A stretch of DNA of 20,812 bases from a virus (Duplodnaviria > Heunggongvirae > Uroviricota > Caudoviricetes): positions 1 through 20,812 of IMG/VR virus record IMGVR_UViG_2534681662_000008. One strand, given 5' to 3'. The notes beneath the pieces are model-generated. The model was not told the origin of the DNA, made no database searches, and saw only the letters and a program-made list of their open reading frames with translations. Made by a program: the position numbers and the translations under genes. Of the stretch, positions 6,335 to 20,812 are shown one piece after another (within the stretch, counting starts at the first letter, position 1; every line of letters begins with the position of its first letter).

Positions 6335-8219
6335 TGCAGCCGGTGCGATAGCAACAGGGCTTGTATCTCTCAATATTCCGGTACCACTGACGACAGTTCA
6401 GTGGGCTGATCAGTATTATTATCTGCCAAAAGAGTCTTCATATACTCCCGGGCAATGGGAAACACTGCCGTTTCAGGTTGCCATCATGAACAGCATGGGG
6501 AATGACCGGATCCGCACCGTTAATCTGATTAAATCGGCGCGTGTTGGTTACACCAAAATGCTGTTGGGGGTGGAGGCTTATTTTATTGAACACAAATCCC
6601 GTAACAGCCTGCTTTTTCAGCCGACAGATTCTGCGGCAGAAGATTTTATGAAATCCCATGTCGAACCAACGATAAGAGACGTTCCTGTATTACTGGAGCT
6701 GGCTCCGTGGTTTGGCAGAAAACATCGGGACAACACGCTTACCCTGAAACGTTTCTCCTCCGGTGTGGGATTCTGGTGTCTGGGCGGAGCTGCTGCCAAA
6801 AACTACCGTGAAAAATCTGTGGATGTGGTCTGCTATGACGAACTCTCCTCGTTTGAACCGGATGTGGAAAAAGAAGGTTCACCAACCCTGCTTGGCGATA
6901 AGCGTATCGAAGGTTCGGTATGGCCTAAATCCATACGCGGCTCAACGCCCAAAATTAAAGGTTTTTGCCAGATTGAAAAAGCCGCGAATGAATCTGCGCA
7001 TTTCATGCGATTTTATGTCCCTTGCCCTCATTGTGGTGAAGCCCAGTATCTGAAGTTTGGCGATGATGCGACGCCGTTTGGCCTGAAATGGGAGAAGGGT
7101 AAACCGGAGACGGTGTATTACCTGTGTGAACATAATGGCTGTGTGATCCGGCAGTCGGAACTTGACCAGACCGACGGGCGGTGGATTTGTGACAATACCG
7201 GGATGTGGACGCGTGACGGTCTGACATTTTACAGAGCCGGTGATGAGGAAATCCCGCCGCGCTCAATCTCGTACCACATCTGGACGGCATACAGCCCGTT
7301 CACCACCTGGGTACAGATTGTTTATGACTGGCTTGATGCACTGAAGGATCCGAATGGCGTCAAGACGTTCATTAACACCACGCTGGGGGAGCCTTATGAA
7401 GAGGCTGTGGCAGAAAAACTGAGCTTTGAGTTGTTGCTGGAAAAAGTCTGCCACTATGATGCGCAGGTTCCCCTGCGGGTGGTTTACCTGACCGCAGGGA
7501 TCGACTCTCAGAAAAACCGTTATGAGATTTATGTCTGGGGGTGGGCTCCTGGCGAAGAAGCTTTTCTGATTGACAAGCAGATCATCATGGGGAGACCGGA
7601 AGATGAGGACACCCTTAAACGCGTTGATGCCGTGATCCGGAAAAAATACCGTCATGCAGATGGCACTGAAATTTCCATTTCCCGCGTCTGCTGGGATACC
7701 GGTGGTATTGACCAGGACATTGTGTATCAGCGATCCAGAAAACACGGCACTTTTTTTGTGCTCCCCATCAAAGGGGCGTCGGTGTACGGCAAGCCGGTGA
7801 TCACCATGCCAAAAAAGCGAAACCAGCGTGGGGTGTTTTTGTGTGAGGTGGGTTCCGATACCGTCAAGGAAATGCTGTATGCGCGTTTTGCCCTGCCGGT
7901 GGTATCTCCCAGTGAAGTCGCACCGTATACCTTCCGTTTTCCGGATAACCCGGACATTTTTTCTGATGTTGAAGCTAAACAACTCGTGGCAGAAGAGCTG
8001 GTTGAAAAAGTTGTGAACGGGCGGGTGAAACTCCAGTGGGATGCCAGAAAACGGCGTAATGAAGCTCTGGACTGTCTGGTGTATGCCTATGCAGCGCTGC
8101 GCATTTCCGTTCAGCGGTGGCAACTGGATCTGGATGCACTGGCCCGCGCCAGAAGAGATGAACAGGACGACGATGAAATGACTATTGAAGAAATCGCAGC
8201 TGCTCTGAGTGGAGGATAA
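6306..8219 (+). CDS. A: Terminase large subunit (lambda gpA-like)
   Basis: 637 aa. Long collinear similarity to lambda gpA ([12 protein letters not shown]...WETLPFQ...[13 protein letters not shown]...HVEPTIRD...[18 protein letters not shown]...CPHCGE...ICWDTGGID...KRRNEALDC). ATG 6306; a TTG at 6303 is an alternative start. Confidence 0.95.
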
Positions 8220-8432: not shown

Positions 8433-10000
8433 ACGGGGAACTGGTGGATATTCATGGGCAGCCTTTACGGCAAAGCATGGGATATTCTGGTGGTGGTTCC
8501 GGGTTCGGTGGGCAAATGGCAGAATGGCTGCCTGCACCGGAAAGTGCCGACGTGGCGCTCTTACCTTCCATTCATCTGGGTAACGCCCGCGCGGATGATC
8601 TGGTCCGTAACAACGGTATTGCATCGAATGCAGTGGAAATTCATAAGGATCATATTGTCGGGCACATGTTTCGTCTGAGTTACCGTCCCAACTGGCGCTG
8701 GCTGGGGATGTCGGAAGCAGATTCACATGCTTTTATTGAAGATGTTGAGGCGGCGTGGATGGAATACTGCGATCCGGTGTTTGGTATGATGGATGTGGAA
8801 GGGCGTCGTTCGTTTACCGAATTCATTCGTGAAGGGGTGGGGGTCCATACGTTTAACGGTGAAATTTTTGTCCAGCCCGTATGGGATGCGGAATCCACGT
8901 CATTATTCCGGACGAAATTCAAAACCATCAGCCCGAAGCGTGTCAGTACACCCGGTTATGGTACCAGCGATCGTTTTATGCGTGCCGGGGTGGAAATAAA
9001 CCGACACGGAAAAGCGCTGGCCTACCATGTTCAGGATGATGACTGGCCCGGCTACGGTGTCAGTAAATGGACACGAATTACGGCAACACTGCCTTCCGGA
9101 CGACCGGGAATGATCCATGTGTTTCAGCCACAGGAAGACGGGCAGACCCGCGGGGCCAACCAGTTTTATTCTGTAATGGAGCGTCTCAAGATGCTCGACA
9201 CACTGCAGGCCACGCAACTGCAGTCGGCGGTGGTTCGCGCCATGTATGCCGCCACGATTGAATCCACACTGGATTCGGAAAAAGCGTTTGAATATATCGC
9301 CGGGGTGGGAGATGGAGGTAAAAATCCCCTGAACACCATCATGAAAGGCTACGCGCGTTATTACGCCACCAATACGGTAAAACTGGGCGGGGTCCGTATT
9401 CCGCATCTTTACCCGGGAGATTCACTGAATCTGCAGACAGCCCAGAATGCGGATAATGGTTTTTCTGAACTGGAAAAGGCGCTGTTACGTTACATTGCTG
9501 CCGGACTGGGTGTGTCGTATGAGCAGCTTTCCCGTGATTATTCACAGGTCAGTTATTCCAGTGCCAGGGCATCCGCCAATGAGTCGTGGCGGTATTTTAT
9601 GGGAAAACGAAAATTTGTGGCCAGTCGCCTGGCGTCACAGATGTTTGCCTGCTGGCTGGAGGAAGCCCTTATTCGTGGTGTGATCCGTCCGCCGAAATCC
9701 CGTTTCTCATTCTGGGAGGCCCGTTCCGGGTGGTGCCGTGCCGAGTGGATTGGTGCCGGTCGCATGGCGATTGATGGCCTTAAGGAAGTGCAGGAAGCGG
9801 TGATGCGCATTGAAGGCGGCCTGAGTACATACGAGAAAGAGCTGGCCCTGATGGGGGATGACTATCAGGAGATTTTCCGCCAGCAGCTACGGGAAACTCA
9901 GGAGCGACAGGCTGCCGGTCTTCCGCGTCCGGTCTGGATAAAGGACGCGTTTCAACAGCAGATCCGACAGACAACGGGAGAAAAAGGCGATGCGCTGTAA
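8429..10000 (+). CDS. B: Portal protein (lambda gpB-like)
   Basis: 523 aa with collinear similarity to lambda B (...FYSVMERLKMLDTLQATQLQSAVVRAMYAATIES...LLRYIAAGLGVSYEQLSRDY...). GTG start at 8429 overlaps the W stop; GGAG lies 8 nt upstream. Confidence 0.9.
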   Translation: MNGELVDIHGQPLRQSMGYSGGGSGFGGQMAEWLPAPESADVALLPSIHLGNARADDLVRNNGIASNAVEIHKDHIVGHMFRLSYRPNWRWLGMSEADSHAFIEDVEAAWMEYCDPVFGMMDVEGRRSFTEFIREGVGVHTFNGEIFVQPVWDAESTSLFRTKFKTISPKRVSTPGYGTSDRFMRAGVEINRHGKALAYHVQDDDWPGYGVSKWTRITATLPSGRPGMIHVFQPQEDGQTRGANQFYSVMERLKMLDTLQATQLQSAVVRAMYAATIESTLDSEKAFEYIAGVGDGGKNPLNTIMKGYARYYATNTVKLGGVRIPHLYPGDSLNLQTAQNADNGFSELEKALLRYIAAGLGVSYEQLSRDYSQVSYSSARASANESWRYFMGKRKFVASRLASQMFACWLEEALIRGVIRPPKSRFSFWEARSGWCRAEWIGAGRMAIDGLKEVQEAVMRIEGGLSTYEKELALMGDDYQEIFRQQLRETQERQAAGLPRPVWIKDAFQQQIRQTTGEKGDAL

Positions 10001-11606
10001 TTTATCACATATTGCCGCGATGGCATTTAATGAGCCGCTTTTACTGGAACCCGCCTATGCGCGGGTTTTCTTTTGCGCACTGGGTAAGGAGATGGGGGCG
10101 GGCAGCCTTGCCGTTCCGCAGCAGGCCGTTCAGCTTGATGCCGATGGTATGCAGCTGGAGGTTACCGATTATATGACTGGTGGTCCGCGTCCGGTAAAGA
10201 GTTACCAGGTGAAAAATGGTATTGCCATTCTGCCGGTGAGCGGCACGCTGGTACATAAAATGGGTACCCTGCAGCCATATTCCGGTATGACCAGTTATGA
10301 CGGTCTGACTGCCCGTCTTAAGTCAGCGGTGAACGACCCGGATGTACGCGGCATTTTACTGGATATCGACAGTCCGGGCGGTCAGGCTGCCGGGGCGTTT
10401 GACTGTGCTGACATGATTTACCGTCTGCGGGAACAGAAGCCCGTGTGGGCGCTGTGTAATGACATGGCCTGTTCAGCCGCCATGTTGCTGGCGGCGGCCT
10501 GTACGCGTCGGCTGGTCACGCAGACGGCAAAAATTGGTTCGATTGGGGTGATGATGGCGCACACCAGTTACGAGAAACAACTGGCACAGGAAGGCGTGGA
10601 TATCACGCTGATTTACTCCGGGCAGCACAAGGTTGACGGCAACAGTATTCAGGCGTTGCCGACAGGTGTGCGTGCGGATTTTCAGCGCCGTATTGATGAT
10701 GCCCGCCGGATGTTTGTCGACAAGGTGGCACTTTATACGGGGCTGAGTTCAGAGGTGGTGATGAATACCGAGGCTGCCGTTTATGACGGTCAGGCAGGCA
10801 TTGATACAGGCCTGGCTGATCAACTGATTAATGCTGCAGATGCCGTTGATGTAATGGTTTCTGCTCTGAACGACTCTGTTACACAGGAGAATACGATGAC
10901 ACCAAAAAATCTCACCGTTGCTGAAGCGGTGTCCCAGGAAAATCAGCGCGTGATGGGGATCCTGAATTGTCAGGAGGCGAAAGGACGCGAAAAACTGGCG
11001 CAGATGCTGGCAGGTCAGCAGGGAATGTCAGTTGAGCAGGCAAAAACATTACTGGCAGCGGCACCGGCAACCGGCACGGCAAGTTCCGGCGATCAAATTA
11101 TTGCGTTGCCGGAAGCAAAAGGACGTGAACAACTGGCACGGACGCTGGCTGAACAGCCGGGAATGACGGTGGAGCAGGCGAAAACGTTACTGGCAGCGGC
11201 ACCGGCAACCGGCACGGCAAGTTCCGGCGATCAAATTATTGCGTTGCCGGAAGCAAAAGGACGTGAACAACTGGCACGGACGCTGGCTGAACAGCCGGGA
11301 ATGACGGTGGAGCAGGCGAAAACGTTACTGGCAGCGGCACCGGCAACCGGCACGGCAAGTTCCGGCGATCAAATTATTGCGTTGCCGGAAGCAAAAGGAC
11401 GCGAAAAACTGGCACAGGCGCTGGCTGAACAACCGGGAATGACAGTGGAGCAGGCGAAAACGCTGCTGGCAGCTGCGCCATCAGTATCGCAACCGTCACA
11501 GGTAACACTTTTTGAGCGCTTCATGGCACAGCATGCCGCCAGTGCCGTTTCCGGTGGCGGAACTGCCGGGAACGGGGAAAAAGAACTGCTGATGAGTATG
11601 CCGTAA
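9990..11606 (+). CDS. C: Head maturation protease / minor capsid protein (lambda gpC-like, S49 peptidase family) with an expanded C-terminal scaffold (Nu3-like) region
   Basis: 538 aa. N-terminus MAFNEPLLLEPAYARVFFCAL and the core ...ILPVSGTLVHKMGTLQPYSGMTSYDG...GILLDIDSPGGQAAGAFDCADMIYRLRE...TGSIGVMMAH match lambda C. The C-terminal third carries 46-aa tandem repeats. Confidence 0.9.
   Translation: MRCNLSHIAAMAFNEPLLLEPAYARVFFCALGKEMGAGSLAVPQQAVQLDADGMQLEVTDYMTGGPRPVKSYQVKNGIAILPVSGTLVHKMGTLQPYSGMTSYDGLTARLKSAVNDPDVRGILLDIDSPGGQAAGAFDCADMIYRLREQKPVWALCNDMACSAAMLLAAACTRRLVTQTAKIGSIGVMMAHTSYEKQLAQEGVDITLIYSGQHKVDGNSIQALPTGVRADFQRRIDDARRMFVDKVALYTGLSSEVVMNTEAAVYDGQAGIDTGLADQLINAADAVDVMVSALNDSVTQENTMTPKNLTVAEAVSQENQRVMGILNCQEAKGREKLAQMLAGQQGMSVEQAKTLLAAAPATGTASSGDQIIALPEAKGREQLARTLAEQPGMTVEQAKTLLAAAPATGTASSGDQIIALPEAKGREQLARTLAEQPGMTVEQAKTLLAAAPATGTASSGDQIIALPEAKGREKLAQALAEQPGMTVEQAKTLLAAAPSVSQPSQVTLFERFMAQHAASAVSGGGTAGNGEKELLMSMP
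10896..11606 (+). CDS. nu3: Candidate internal in-frame scaffolding protein (lambda Nu3-like) translated from within C
   Basis: In-frame ATG at 10896 preceded by AGGAG (10885-10889). In lambda, Nu3 is the in-frame C-terminal part of C. ...ENQRVMGILNCQEAKGRE... matches the lambda Nu3 motif ENSRIMGILNCEEAHGRE (recalled). Confidence 0.4.
   Translation: MTPKNLTVAEAVSQENQRVMGILNCQEAKGREKLAQMLAGQQGMSVEQAKTLLAAAPATGTASSGDQIIALPEAKGREQLARTLAEQPGMTVEQAKTLLAAAPATGTASSGDQIIALPEAKGREQLARTLAEQPGMTVEQAKTLLAAAPATGTASSGDQIIALPEAKGREKLAQALAEQPGMTVEQAKTLLAAAPSVSQPSQVTLFERFMAQHAASAVSGGGTAGNGEKELLMSMP
10973..11472 (+). repeat. Tandem direct repeat array, 138-bp unit, about 3.6 copies (in-frame 46-aa repeat in C/Nu3)
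   Basis: Copies at 11111-11248 and 11249-11386 are identical. The copy at 10973-11110 is diverged in its first half. A partial diverged copy starts at 11387. Protein unit: EAKGREQLARTLAEQPGMTVEQAKTLLAAAPATGTASSGDQIIALP. Confidence 0.85.
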
Positions 11607-16105: not shown

Positions 16106-16428
16106 CGCAGGAAATGCAGTTTGTCATGCGGCTGGCCCGGGAGTTCCGGCGGGGCGACTGGCGGCGAATGCTGTCAGAAATGTCAGCCACAGAACTGGGA
16201 GAGTGGGGGGATTATTTCCGGCGGCAGAGTTTCAGTGATGTGTGGCTGGATGCGCAATTTGCCACACTGAAAACGCTGATTGTGCAGATGGTTTCCGGAA
16301 AAACCGTGGCGGCGGATATGTTCAGCTTGTTGCCTTCAGAGACAGAAGCGCCCGTCCGGACAGATGAAGAGCTGATGTTTCTGGGGGAAGGTATCGCGGG
16401 AGGAATAAGAATTGAGCCAGATAGCTGA
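15716..16428 (+). CDS. T: Tail assembly protein G-T fusion made by programmed -1 ribosomal frameshift near the 3' end of G
   Basis: The -1 frame is open from 16072 through the G stop (16103-16105) to TGA at 16426-16428, encoding a lambda gpT-like segment. Slippery-type heptamer G-GAA-AAG at 16093-16099. Confidence 0.7.
16076..16099 (+). other. Frameshift cassette: internal SD-like AAGGAGG (16076-16082) 10 nt upstream of slippery G-GAA-AAG (16093-16099)
   Basis: Read directly from the sequence. The spacing resembles the stimulatory SD element of the E. coli dnaX -1 frameshift site. Confidence 0.45.
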
Positions 16429-19400
16429 CCTTGTTATTGATTTAAGTGTTGATACGGCTGATTTTAAGGAACAGCTTCCGCGTATTAAAGCGCAACTCAA
16501 TGGTACCGCCAGCGAAGCGGCGCGCGCAGAAGCGCGGGTCAGACAGTTTGAAGCGAGTCAGAAGCAGGCGGCGACTACCGCGGTGAAACAGACTCAGGCA
16601 CTGGCGGGGAATGCGCAGGCGCATGTTTCGTTGTCAGAGGATGTGGAACAGACCCGTCAGCGACTTGATGCCCTGAACCGGAAAATGCGTGAGGAGCAGG
16701 CGCAGGCGGCGGCACTGGCTGCTGCTCAGGATAAAGCCGCTGCTGCATTTTATCGTCAGATTGACAGTGTGAAACAGGCGGGGGCCGGACTGCAGGAGCT
16801 GCAGCGTATTCAGCAGCAGGTCCGTCAGGCCAGAAACAATGGTGGCATCGCGCAGCAGGATTATCTGGCGTTAATCTCCGAAGTGACGGCAAAAACCCGC
16901 GTGCTGGCTCAGGCTGAAGAATCCGCCACCCGCCAGAAGACGGCCTTTATCCGGCGGCTGAAGGAGCAGGTATCCGCTCAGAATCTTTCATCCACGGAGC
17001 TGCTCAGGGCAAAAGCCGCGCAGCTGGGTGTCAGTAGTGCGGCTGAGGTGTATATCAGCAAAATGGAAAAAGCCGGGAAGGTCACGCATTCGCTGGGGCT
17101 GAAAAGTGCGGCGGCCCGCCAGGAGATAGGTGTTCTGATAGGTGAAATTGCCCGGGGTAATTTCGGTGCGCTTCGTGGCTCCGGGATCACCCTGGCTAAC
17201 CGTGCCGGATGGATTGACGCGCTGATGTCCCCGAAAGGCATGGCTGTCGGCGGGGTTATCGGTGGACTCACTGCTGCTGTTGTCGGGCTGGGAAAGGCCT
17301 GGTATGACGGTCAGAAGGAGGGGGAGGTGTTTAATCGTCAGCTGGCGTTGACAGGGCATTATGCGGGCATCACTACCGGACAGCTGTGGACTCTCAGTCG
17401 CGCCATTTCCGGGAATGGTATCACGCAACATGCTGCAGCCAGTGCGCTGGCTCAGGCGGTTGGCAGCGGTGCATTTCGTGGAGGTGATATCGCCATGGTG
17501 GCGAAAGCTGCCGCGCAAATGGAAAGTTCAGTGGGGCAGTCTGTCAGCGACACCATCAGTCAGTTTAAGCGACTGAAGGATGACCCGGTAAATGCAGCCA
17601 GGACGCTGGATAATGAACTGCATTTCCTGACTGCCACCCAGCTTGAACAAATCCGTGTTCTCGGGGAACAGGGGCGTGCCAGTGATGCTGCCCGGATCGC
17701 CATGTCAGCGCTGGCAGAGGAAACCGGTAAACGCACATCTGATATTGATAATAATCTCAATGCGCTGGGCAGTACGCTGCAAACCTTATCTGACTGGTGG
17801 AAGCAGTTCTGGGATGCCGCCATGAATATCGGGCGTAATGATTCCCTTGATGCGCAGATTGCGGCGCTGCAGGAAAAAATTCAGCGTGCGAAAAAATCGC
17901 CCTGGACAAATGCATCCACCACAGTGGAATACGACCAGCAGCGCCTTGATGAACTTCAGGAGAAAAAGCGCCAGAAAGATTTACAGGATGCAAAAGAGCA
18001 GGCAGAGCGGAATTATCAGGAGCAACAGAAACGCCGTAATGCTGAAAATGCTGCACTGAACCGGATGAATGAAACGGAAGCAGCACGACATCAGCGTGAA
18101 ATTGCGCGTATTAATGCCATGCAGTACGCAGATCAGTCGGTCAGGGACGCAGCGATACAGCGTGAAAATAAACGTCACAAAAAAGCCATTAAGAAAGAAA
18201 CGCCTGCCACCCGTAATGATGAGGCCACCCGGTTATTACTGCAGTACAGCCAGCAACAGGCGCAGGTGGAGGGGCAGATCGCCGCCGCCAGACAGTCCGC
18301 GGGACTGACCACGAAAAAAATGACGGAAGCGCATAAGCAGCTTCTGGCCCTGCAGCAGCGTATCAGTGATTTAGCCGGTAAAAAGCTGACGGCAGATGAA
18401 AAAAGCGTGCTGGCGCATAAGGATGAACTGATTCAGGCGCTGACGCTGCTGGATGCAAAACAGCAGGAGCTGCAGAAGCAGACGGCGCTGAATGACCTTA
18501 AGAAAAAATCCATTCAGCTTGCCAGCCAGCTGGCGGAAGAGGAGCGGGTTCTGCGTCAGCAACATGACCTGGATATCGCCACGACAGGGATGGGGGATAA
18601 ACAGCGTCAGCGATACCAGGCACAGTTCAGTCTGCAACAAAAATATCAGCAGCAGCGGGAACAGTTGGAGCGTGACAGTAAGCGGAAAGGAACATATGGC
18701 ACAGATGAATACCGGAATGCTGAGCAGACGCTGACAGACAGTCTTAACCGGCAACTGAACGAAAACAGACGCTACTGGCAGGAGCAGGAACTGATGCAGG
18801 CAGACTGGAAAAACGGTGCCATGCGGGCGTTTCAGAATTTTACGGCAGATGCGGATAATGCGGCAGGAACTGCTGAGCAGATGTTTACAGCGGCATTTAA
18901 CAGTGCAGGTAATGCACTGGCGACGTTCTGCACGACAGGTAAACTGAATTTCAAATCCTTTACCGCCTCGCTTCTTTCCGACCTGGCAAAAATCATGGCG
19001 CAGATGGCCATTATGCAGGCGGTGAAGGGGATTGGTTCGGCGTTTGGCTGGGGGAGCGCATCCGCTGCCAGTGTGACGCCCAATGCGGATGGCGGTGTTT
19101 ATCAGTCTGCGGATTTGAGCCGTTACAGTGGCTCAGTGGTTAACCGCCCGACGTTTTTTGCCTTTGCAAAAGGCGCGGGGGTGATGGGAGAAGCGGGGCC
19201 TGAAGCCATTCTGCCACTGCGTCGTGGTGCCGACGGTAAGCTGGGTGTTGTGGCGGATATTGGTGGTTCAGGCATGGTGATGTTTGCCCCGCAGTACAAC
19301 ATCGCGATCAATAACGACGGTACGAACGGGCAGATAGGTCCGGCTGCCCTGAAGGTGGTTTATGACCTCGGGAAAAAAGCTGCAGCGGACTTTATGCAAC

Positions 19401-19444
19401 AGCAGTCCCGTGATGGCGGTCAGTTAAGCGGAGTGTATCGGTAA
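16412..19444 (+). CDS. H: Tail tape measure protein (lambda gpH-like), 1010 aa
   Basis: TTG start at 16412 with GGAGG 8 nt upstream. N-terminus ...ADLVIDLSVDTADFKEQL... and C-terminus ...IAINNDGTNGQIGPAALKVVYDL...RDGGQLSGV match lambda H. About 157 aa longer than lambda H (853 aa, recalled). Confidence 0.9.
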   Translation: MSQIADLVIDLSVDTADFKEQLPRIKAQLNGTASEAARAEARVRQFEASQKQAATTAVKQTQALAGNAQAHVSLSEDVEQTRQRLDALNRKMREEQAQAAALAAAQDKAAAAFYRQIDSVKQAGAGLQELQRIQQQVRQARNNGGIAQQDYLALISEVTAKTRVLAQAEESATRQKTAFIRRLKEQVSAQNLSSTELLRAKAAQLGVSSAAEVYISKMEKAGKVTHSLGLKSAAARQEIGVLIGEIARGNFGALRGSGITLANRAGWIDALMSPKGMAVGGVIGGLTAAVVGLGKAWYDGQKEGEVFNRQLALTGHYAGITTGQLWTLSRAISGNGITQHAAASALAQAVGSGAFRGGDIAMVAKAAAQMESSVGQSVSDTISQFKRLKDDPVNAARTLDNELHFLTATQLEQIRVLGEQGRASDAARIAMSALAEETGKRTSDIDNNLNALGSTLQTLSDWWKQFWDAAMNIGRNDSLDAQIAALQEKIQRAKKSPWTNASTTVEYDQQRLDELQEKKRQKDLQDAKEQAERNYQEQQKRRNAENAALNRMNETEAARHQREIARINAMQYADQSVRDAAIQRENKRHKKAIKKETPATRNDEATRLLLQYSQQQAQVEGQIAAARQSAGLTTKKMTEAHKQLLALQQRISDLAGKKLTADEKSVLAHKDELIQALTLLDAKQQELQKQTALNDLKKKSIQLASQLAEEERVLRQQHDLDIATTGMGDKQRQRYQAQFSLQQKYQQQREQLERDSKRKGTYGTDEYRNAEQTLTDSLNRQLNENRRYWQEQELMQADWKNGAMRAFQNFTADADNAAGTAEQMFTAAFNSAGNALATFCTTGKLNFKSFTASLLSDLAKIMAQMAIMQAVKGIGSAFGWGSASAASVTPNADGGVYQSADLSRYSGSVVNRPTFFAFAKGAGVMGEAGPEAILPLRRGADGKLGVVADIGGSGMVMFAPQYNIAINNDGTNGQIGPAALKVVYDLGKKAAADFMQQQSRDGGQLSGVYR

Positions 19445-19773
19445 TGGAGACGTTTCACTGGAAAATTCGTCCTGATATGACAGTGGCATCGGAACCGAAG
19501 GTGTTGACGGTAAAGCTGGGGGATGGCTATGAACAGCGGCGACCGGCAGGACTGAATAATTTATTGTCTGTTTACAGTGTGACTATCCGGATACGTAAAG
19601 GAGAACATCAGTCACTGGAGGATTTTCTGGCGCGGCATGGCGGTGTCAGGGCGTTTCAGTGGGTGCCGCCTTATGGCTGGAAACCAGTCAGGGTGGTTTG
19701 TCGTAAATGGTCGGCAAGCGTGGGGGCGTTGTGGGTGACCATAACGGCAGATTTTGAACAGGTCGTGGCATAG
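19444..19773 (+). CDS. M: Minor tail protein (lambda gpM-like)
   Basis: 109 aa. METFHWKIRPDMTVASEPKVLTVKLGDGYEQRRPAGLNN...YSVT...FLARHGG...FQWVPPYGW matches lambda M. Start overlaps the H stop (TAATG). Confidence 0.9.
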   Translation: METFHWKIRPDMTVASEPKVLTVKLGDGYEQRRPAGLNNLLSVYSVTIRIRKGEHQSLEDFLARHGGVRAFQWVPPYGWKPVRVVCRKWSASVGALWVTITADFEQVVA

Positions 19774-19781
19774 GAGGCCTG

Positions 19782-20473
19782 ATGCAGGATATTCACAGGA
19801 AACACATCATGAGACGACACGCCTCACTCAGTCAGCCCAGGTGGTGCTCTGGGAAATCGATCTGACAGAGGTCGGTGGTGAACGTTATTTTTTCTGTAAT
19901 GAGCAGAACGAAAAAGGTGAGCCGGTCACCTGGCAGGGGCGACAGTATCAGGCGTATCCCATTCAGGGGACGGATTTGAACTGAACGGCAAGGGCAGTGC
20001 TGCCCGTCCGACACTGACGGTTTCTAACCTGCACGGCATGGTCACCGGGATGGCGGAAGACCTGCAGAGTCTGGTCGGCGGAACGGTGGTCGGCGTAAGG
20101 TTTACGCCCGTTTTCTGGATGCGGTGAACTTCGTCAACGGAAACAGTGACGCCGACCGGAGCAGGAGGTGATCAGCCGCTGGCGCATGAGCAGTGCAGGA
20201 ACTGAGCGCGGTGAGTGCTCTTTTGTACTGTCCACGCCGACGGAAACGGACGGCGCTGTTTTTCCGGGACGTATCATGCTGGCCAACACCTGCACCTGGA
20301 CCTATCGCGGTGATGAGTGCGGTTATCACGGTCCGGCGGTCGCGGATGAATATGATCAGCCGACGTCCGATATCACGAAGGATAAATGCAGCAAATGCCT
20401 GAGCGGCTGTAAGTTTCGCAATAACGTCGGCAACTTTGGCGGCTTCCTTTCCATTAACAAACTTTCGCAGTAA
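19782..20473 (+). pseudogene. L: Minor tail protein L homologue disrupted by multiple single-base frameshifts
   Basis: ATG 19782 with AGGAGG upstream gives MQDI, then a stop after 27 codons. Lambda-L-like sequence continues in shifted frames: SQETHHETTRLTQSAQVVLWEIDLTEVGGERYFFCNEQNEKGEPVTWQGRQYQ, then FELNGKG...TLTVSNLHGMVTGMAEDLQSLVGGTVV, then RRKVYARFLDAVNFVNGNS, and finally an intact FVLSTPTETDGAVFPGRIMLANTCTWTYRGDECGY...KCLSGCKFRNNVGNFGGFLSINKLSQ. Confidence 0.75.
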
Positions 20474-20477
20474 TCCC

Positions 20478-20564
20478 ATGACAGAGACAGAATCAGCGAT
20501 TCTGGCGCACGCCCGGCGATGTGCGCCAGCGGAGTCGTGCGGCTTCGTGGTGAGAACACCGGAG
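20478..20564 (+). pseudogene. K: Tail assembly protein K homologue, 5' fragment only (about 29 codons)
   Basis: ATG 20478 directly after L. MTETESAILAHARRCAPAESCGFVVRTPE matches the lambda K N-terminus (recalled); similarity ends near 20564. Confidence 0.55.
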
Positions 20565-20812
20565 CCCGGGATGCGTCAGCTTCAAAAGAGGCGGCAAAAT
20601 CATCAGAAACGAGCGCAGCCTCGAGCGCCAGCAGCGCAGCTTCCTCGGCAACGGCGACAGCAAATTCCGCGAAGGCGGCAAAAACGTCAGAGACGAACGC
20701 CAGGTCTTCTGAAACGGCAGCGGGACAGAGCGCCTCGGCTGCGGCAGGCTCAAAAACAGCGGCTGCGTCGTCTGCCAGTGCAGCGTCAACAAGTGCCGGG
20801 CAGGCCTCAGCC
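20565..20812 (+). pseudogene. stf: Side tail fibre (Stf-like) internal fragment, Ala/Ser-rich repeat region, out of frame with the K fragment; continues beyond the window end
   Basis: Frame 2 translation ...ARDASASKEAAKSSETSAASSASSAASSATATANSAKAAKTSETNARSSETAAGQSASAAAGSKTAAASSASAASTSAGQASA is typical of the repeat region about 250-300 aa into lambdoid side tail fibres. The normal N-terminal part is absent. Confidence 0.5.

Follow-up and report, generated by a model that had tools for sequence, protein, structure and literature searches.

Frameshifts in the tail gene L of a lambdoid prophage contig are probably a consensus artefact of mixed L copies

The homologue of the λ tail gene L at the end of a draft Escherichia coli contig is interrupted by a dense series of one-base deletions. 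Judging from where they fall, the resulting frameshifts are probably not a biological feature but a consensus-calling artefact, created in a draft assembly from mixed paralogous copies of L. The window (the whole stretch of DNA analysed here, 20,812 bp) is the complete contig AQDT01000025.1 of assembly GCA_000355595.1, which was identified by an exact-protein look-up followed by a check of sequence identity. Compared with intact L genes, it carries nine one-base deletions and no insertion at positions 19778-20472. A preliminary description of this DNA considered a localised sequencing or assembly error more likely than a mutational burst. That preference is supported, as all nine deletions can be placed at natural variant sites and are close to a contig end. 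At this locus, the strain itself most likely has an L gene that is intact or of an ordinary kind.

As deposited, gene L (the gpL homologue) extends from position 19782 to 20473 on the plus strand, the strand of all genes and deletions located below. It measures 692 nt instead of 699, and three-frame translation needs seven shifts of frame to read through it. No single frame of about 232 codons is present and the longest ORFs in L frames are of 76 and 101 aa. The deletions were called concordantly by pairwise alignment to the intact L of E. coli 101EVA, by the blast gap lists of six relatives and by an independent global alignment. Seven of the nine are within the L frame, one sits 3-4 nt 5' of the ATG and one is in the stop codon. 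The three alignments agree in placing all seven in-frame losses where the preliminary description had listed frame changes, and its statement that L cannot be translated from this sequence as a single protein is correct, seven shifts being required.

The variation of each site was read from a panel of 71 distinct natural L sequences (from 80 IMG/VR loci plus genome loci), aligned without the window. The IMG/VR loci were gathered with the intact C-terminal 83 codons of the window's L as query. The first deletion (19778-19779) is located between the ribosome-binding site GGAGG and the L ATG (19782). The window has CC there and relatives that possess this spacer have CCC or CTC, the panel column being C in 9 sequences, T in 24 and absent in 38. 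The second (19792-19793) leaves TT in codons 4-5, where 101EVA has TTT; T columns 2 and 3 are both polymorphic (T33/A8/C30 and T5/C66). At the third (19972-19973), GG replaces the GGG of relatives, with a first G column of G27/T31/A4/C9, and at the fourth (20091) a single C replaces CC or CA (second column C53/A18). The following three concern third codon positions outside homopolymers: the T of a GAT is missing between 20155 and 20156 (T69/C2), the C of an ATC between 20187 and 20188 (C56/T14/A1) and the T of an AGT between 20198 and 20199 (T6/C65). The eighth (20218) leaves one C of the CC found in relatives in a GCC codon (second C column C69/T2). The ninth (20471-20472) removes a G or an A in or after the stop codon, which reads TGAA or TAAA in some relatives and TAA in the window (G17/A32/absent 22).

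Restoring the missing bases gives a protein of 232 aa that differs from the L of 101EVA at 3 residues. This repaired translation matches the family PF05100 (Phage_tail_L) over profile positions 1-206 of 206 (E=1.8e-99) and the λ tail tip protein L (8iyk_L) over residues 1-232 (E=2.6e-148). The gene order H, M, L, K' is that of a λ-type tail module, with L located between M and K. Likeness to λ gpL comprises the length of 232 aa once nine bases are restored, the complete PF05100 profile and the H-M-L-K order, whereas the deposited 692 nt with their seven frame changes cannot encode gpL, and most of K as well as I, J and lom are missing. The preliminary description reported that one-base losses were accompanied by essentially no other divergence. 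The seven losses stand, but the second part is only approximate: the L region shows 8 substitutions relative to 101EVA, and among the more than 10,000 L copies of 5,426 complete E. coli genomes, even the closest is about 5 substitutions and 9 gaps away from the window.

The contig begins inside rusA and stops inside the side-tail-fibre gene stf. Both genes are classic repeats common to lambdoid prophages. L is contained in the last 1,035 bp of the contig, and the deletions are found 340-1,035 bp from the 3' end. Upstream, the tape-measure gene H (16412-19444) is an intact single ORF of 1010 aa, and the exact H protein is encoded on 219 other contigs, one of them 4.96 Mb long. The closest DNA relative, L017 (AQEZ prefix), is 99.85% identical to the window with 0 gaps across the 9,284 bp directly upstream. 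Comparison with relatives revealed no frame-breaking indel outside L in any recognisable gene of the contig. The other indels are of 3 and 6 bp and in frame, of 8 bp in non-coding DNA, or located in intergenic spacers, and H contains a compensating +1/-1 pair; the remaining differences fall in a poorly conserved stretch at 4.0-4.8 kb. Because the upstream sequence is gap-free relative to L017 and the indels elsewhere do not break frames, the nine deletions in 695 bp constitute a sharply bounded cluster. Their clustering is far beyond chance. The end of L and the upstream genes H and M had been described as intact, and M, H and the last 83-84 codons of L are indeed open frames.

The contig is a natural mosaic of two prophage types. 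It is of type A (L010-L018, the lineage with identical H) up to about 19691, and of type B from about 19714. Type B refers to the lineage of the defective prophage adjoining ydfJ and tfaQ in strains 101EVA and GPEC1405. The change occurs within gene M (19444-19773), an intact ORF of 109 aa (PF05939, E=8.3e-40) with a hybrid allele, whose 5' 250 nt are of type A and whose 3' 60-80 nt are 101EVA-like. The identical hybrid M protein is encoded by an independent 573-bp ENA metagenome contig (L008), in which the end of H differs. Since this independent contig encodes the same protein, the switch at ~19691-19714 is natural and the recombinant allele is in circulation. A misassembled chimeric join within M was considered and rejected, as L008 encodes the same hybrid M with the same switch.

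On the other side of L, gene K' (20478-20564) comprises the first 28-29 codons of K and ends at a deletion junction. It is followed up to the contig end by stf sequence out of frame with K' (20565-20812), which is 95.7% identical to the stf of L005 and 100% identical to that of 101EVA. The K'::stf junction at ~20563-20565 displays about 2 bp of microhomology (AG). The genes I, J and lom, present between K and stf in relatives, and the 5' part of stf are absent from the window. This deletion is real and inherited, since the identical junction is found next to tfaQ/ydfJ in the complete genomes of 101EVA (NZ_CP138393.1) and GPEC1405 (NZ_CM142774.1).

These two genomes are 99% identical to the window over 19700-20812, and from 20268 to the contig end the ninth deletion is the sole difference. 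The state of the window at that ninth site is the natural one in type A prophages. The two genomes differ from the window in that H and most of M belong to another lineage, with ~82% identity from 13886 to the contig end, and in that their L is an intact gene of 699 nt. Comparison with L in related prophages had been proposed as a check on the frameshifts, and it identified two genomes of the same arrangement in which the gene is not broken.

The distribution of the deletions relative to natural polymorphism was evaluated with a run-aware test. Each deletion was allowed to be any base of its homopolymer run, and a column was considered polymorphic when its minor allele was counted at least twice. 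All nine deletions could be assigned to columns that are polymorphic in the panel, for an expectation of 27% each (binomial p = 7.8e-6). An earlier test, for which the window was part of the multiple alignment, gave eight of nine; it was open to gap-placement bias and was replaced by the run-aware test. Placement is unambiguous for the four deletions of non-repeated bases (the third positions of GAT, ATC and AGT, and the TGA/TAA stop), and all four are at polymorphic positions. The other five are located in short runs (2-3 identical bases), and type A and type B differ at six to seven of the nine sites. Falling on polymorphic sites, the deletions are therefore distributed as expected of merged reads from paralogous prophages and not of random error.

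The variable sites that were not deleted show a related pattern, since the window alternates there between alleles and forms a patchwork. With the best single natural allele, 7 substitutions remain unaccounted for, and a pair of natural alleles accounts for every base. The differences between the members of this same pair also include seven of the nine deletions, a result that is supportive but not decisive given that 2,485 pairs were tried.

E. coli genomes usually hold several lambdoid prophages, and identity between their L genes is 90-98%. In complete E. coli genomes, 10,587 L copies were counted in 4,341 of 5,426 genomes, with a median of 2 and a maximum of 11 per genome. The protein cluster of L is full of 'partial' fragments, presumably pieces cut at contig ends. 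We infer that reads of at least two diverged L copies, one of them a second copy in this strain, were piled together about 1 kb from the contig end, over the conserved DNA that spans the last part of M, all of L and the first part of K. Wherever the copies agree, the consensus would be correct. At sites differing by one base, the caller would in some cases pick one allele, generating the allele patchwork; in others, with no majority base, it may emit nothing, generating a one-base deletion. Two routes could lead to this outcome. In overlap-layout consensus, the two alleles would be set in adjacent half-gap columns, while in flow-space averaging each allele would contribute a signal of about 0.5.

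Dense polymorphism among the reads of a pile is a recognised sign of collapsed repeats and of assembly error (PMC2847712). The window resembles such collapsed-repeat or mixed-paralogue errors by a gene that is typically multi-copy in E. coli genomes, a contig end bounded by repeats, errors that are confined to the conserved stretch and coincide with variants between copies, and interleaved alleles. Three of the features by which an artefact of this kind is recognised were found together, namely errors at inter-copy variant sites, a repeat-bounded end of a draft contig and gap-free adjoining sequence. The difference is that the outcome in the window, deletions only, is more one-sided than the simple model predicts. 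Under pure mixing, one-base insertions should now and then appear as well; none was seen, which is a weakness of the explanation by mixed copies.

That same one-sidedness would suit random base-calling errors where coverage is thin or quality is low towards the contig end, as in a single-read tail, with no second copy involved. Such an origin would agree with the position near the contig end and with the five sites in runs of 2-3 bases. The spacing of the deletions also tightens from 19972 to 20218 (180, 119, 65, 32, 11 and 19 bp) and then stops, as at a fading read end. Nevertheless, random errors have no reason to strike polymorphic sites, as all nine deletions do, they leave the allele patchwork at the non-deleted sites unexplained, and the longest homopolymers of L (T6, A5 and T5) are intact in the window. 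This origin is consequently considered unlikely. Ordinary homopolymer miscalling of the 454, Ion or nanopore type was rejected, as T6, A5 and T5 were spared and four deletions hit non-repeated bases. Errors at methylation motifs were likewise discarded: one deletion takes the T of a GATC, and no motif is common to the others.

The deletions could also be genuine and mark a pseudogene, in which L became useless after the loss of most of K and of the genes between K and stf and then accumulated frameshifts in this strain. With K reduced to about 28 codons that run into stf, no selection would act on L, and in a defective prophage a real L pseudogene would cost the cell nothing, which counts against the reading as an artefact. 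Yet H, M and all upstream head and tail genes are intact, H being shared without change by so many other contigs, and 101EVA and GPEC1405, whose complete genomes share the K'::stf deletion, retain an intact L. Decay would moreover be expected to leave a mixture of substitutions, insertions, deletions and stops across the dispensable genes, whereas only one-base deletions within 695 bp are observed here, all assignable to sites where alleles differ. A pseudogene should finally have lesions that related strains share wholly or partly, and none was found; no intermediate allele bearing part of the deletions was present in the complete genomes, IMG/VR, the representative genomes or the panel. Real decay of L is thus improbable.

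Several searches addressed how private the broken allele is. The 101-aa frameshift product is recorded on no contig other than this one, and a 44-nt stretch spanning the sixth to eighth deletions had no exact match in IMG/VR or in 185,579 representative genomes (one per species). None of the 71 panel sequences shares any deletion with the window, and 68 of these 71 distinct sequences are single ORFs of 232 aa. Private indels were encountered in only two other panel sequences, one base being lost in one and two in the other. All three lost bases lie within homopolymer runs or at their edges, where the panel is monomorphic. A recent mutational burst, which the preliminary description had judged the less likely option, is unsupported, given that no assembly shares the product or the 44-nt stretch and that L is intact in genomes carrying this prophage arrangement.

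The least credible explanation, put at very remote odds, is that recombination between diverged L copies produced real deletions through an error-prone processing of heteroduplex DNA that removed mismatched bases instead of correcting them: the deletions do coincide with sites of allele difference, the patchwork resembles a gene-conversion tract and the adjoining M is a natural recombinant, but no such allele exists elsewhere among thousands of genomes and consensus calling on mixed reads yields the same signature trivially. We know of no repair pathway that removes single mismatched bases. If true, the process would be new to biology and would leave a conversion tract with single bases missing exactly where the mismatches had been.

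A programmed origin of the frame changes was also evaluated. The λ tail genes G and G-T are expressed by programmed ribosomal frameshifting, and L of the window resembles them as a tail gene in which the reading frame changes. The difference is that the frame changes of L are conserved in no homologue, almost all panel sequences being uninterrupted ORFs. Programmed frameshifting or recoding in L was rejected, as the sites are unconserved and seven shifts in one gene constitute no recoding signal. The slippery heptamer GGGAAAG of G-T had no match near the end of G, a result that is irrelevant to L.

With mixed L copies as the preferred explanation, the biological weight of the lesion is small, since L is most likely normal in this strain and belongs to a defective prophage. 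It serves rather as a warning that draft contigs can bear dense local frameshifts in conserved prophage genes. Such frameshifts inflate pseudogene counts and spawn spurious short proteins in databases, of which the 47-aa and 101-aa fragments of L are examples. The combination of one-base deletions on paralogue-variant sites, spared long homopolymers and a repeat-bounded contig end provides a diagnostic that needs no reads and that points to a mixed-copy consensus instead of mutation.

Another broken L was observed in the closest DNA relative of the window, also a draft assembly (L017 9362-10058; AQEZ01000008.1, GCA_000355275.2), where the gene is split into pieces of 38 and 200 aa. Two bases were lost there at the end of the T6 run, at sites that are monomorphic in the panel. 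This lesion is of a different kind, either a homopolymer error or slippage.

Additional observations concern the rest of the contig and its records. Every database match starts at base 11, which leaves the first 10 bases without a counterpart among the sequences retrieved. The look-up record for AQDT01000025.1 carries the entry 'samples_with_this_contig: 3', and in the cluster table the frameshifted L fragment is assigned to one contig and M to one NCBI accession. A prophage-borne tRNA-Thr (TGT, 1834-1909) and tRNA-Gly (TCC, 1913-1987) are found upstream of the lysis genes, a position that matches the one in relatives, where they are downstream of a DNA methyltransferase gene. At window position 7259, the gene of the terminase large subunit has one codon (ACC) fewer than in three relatives, an in-frame difference that leaves the ORF intact. 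The S49-peptidase/scaffold gene (9990-11606) contains a tandem repeat at 10973-11473 with a period of 138 bp (46 codons), 3.6 copies and 93% matches, and relatives have the same internal repeat.
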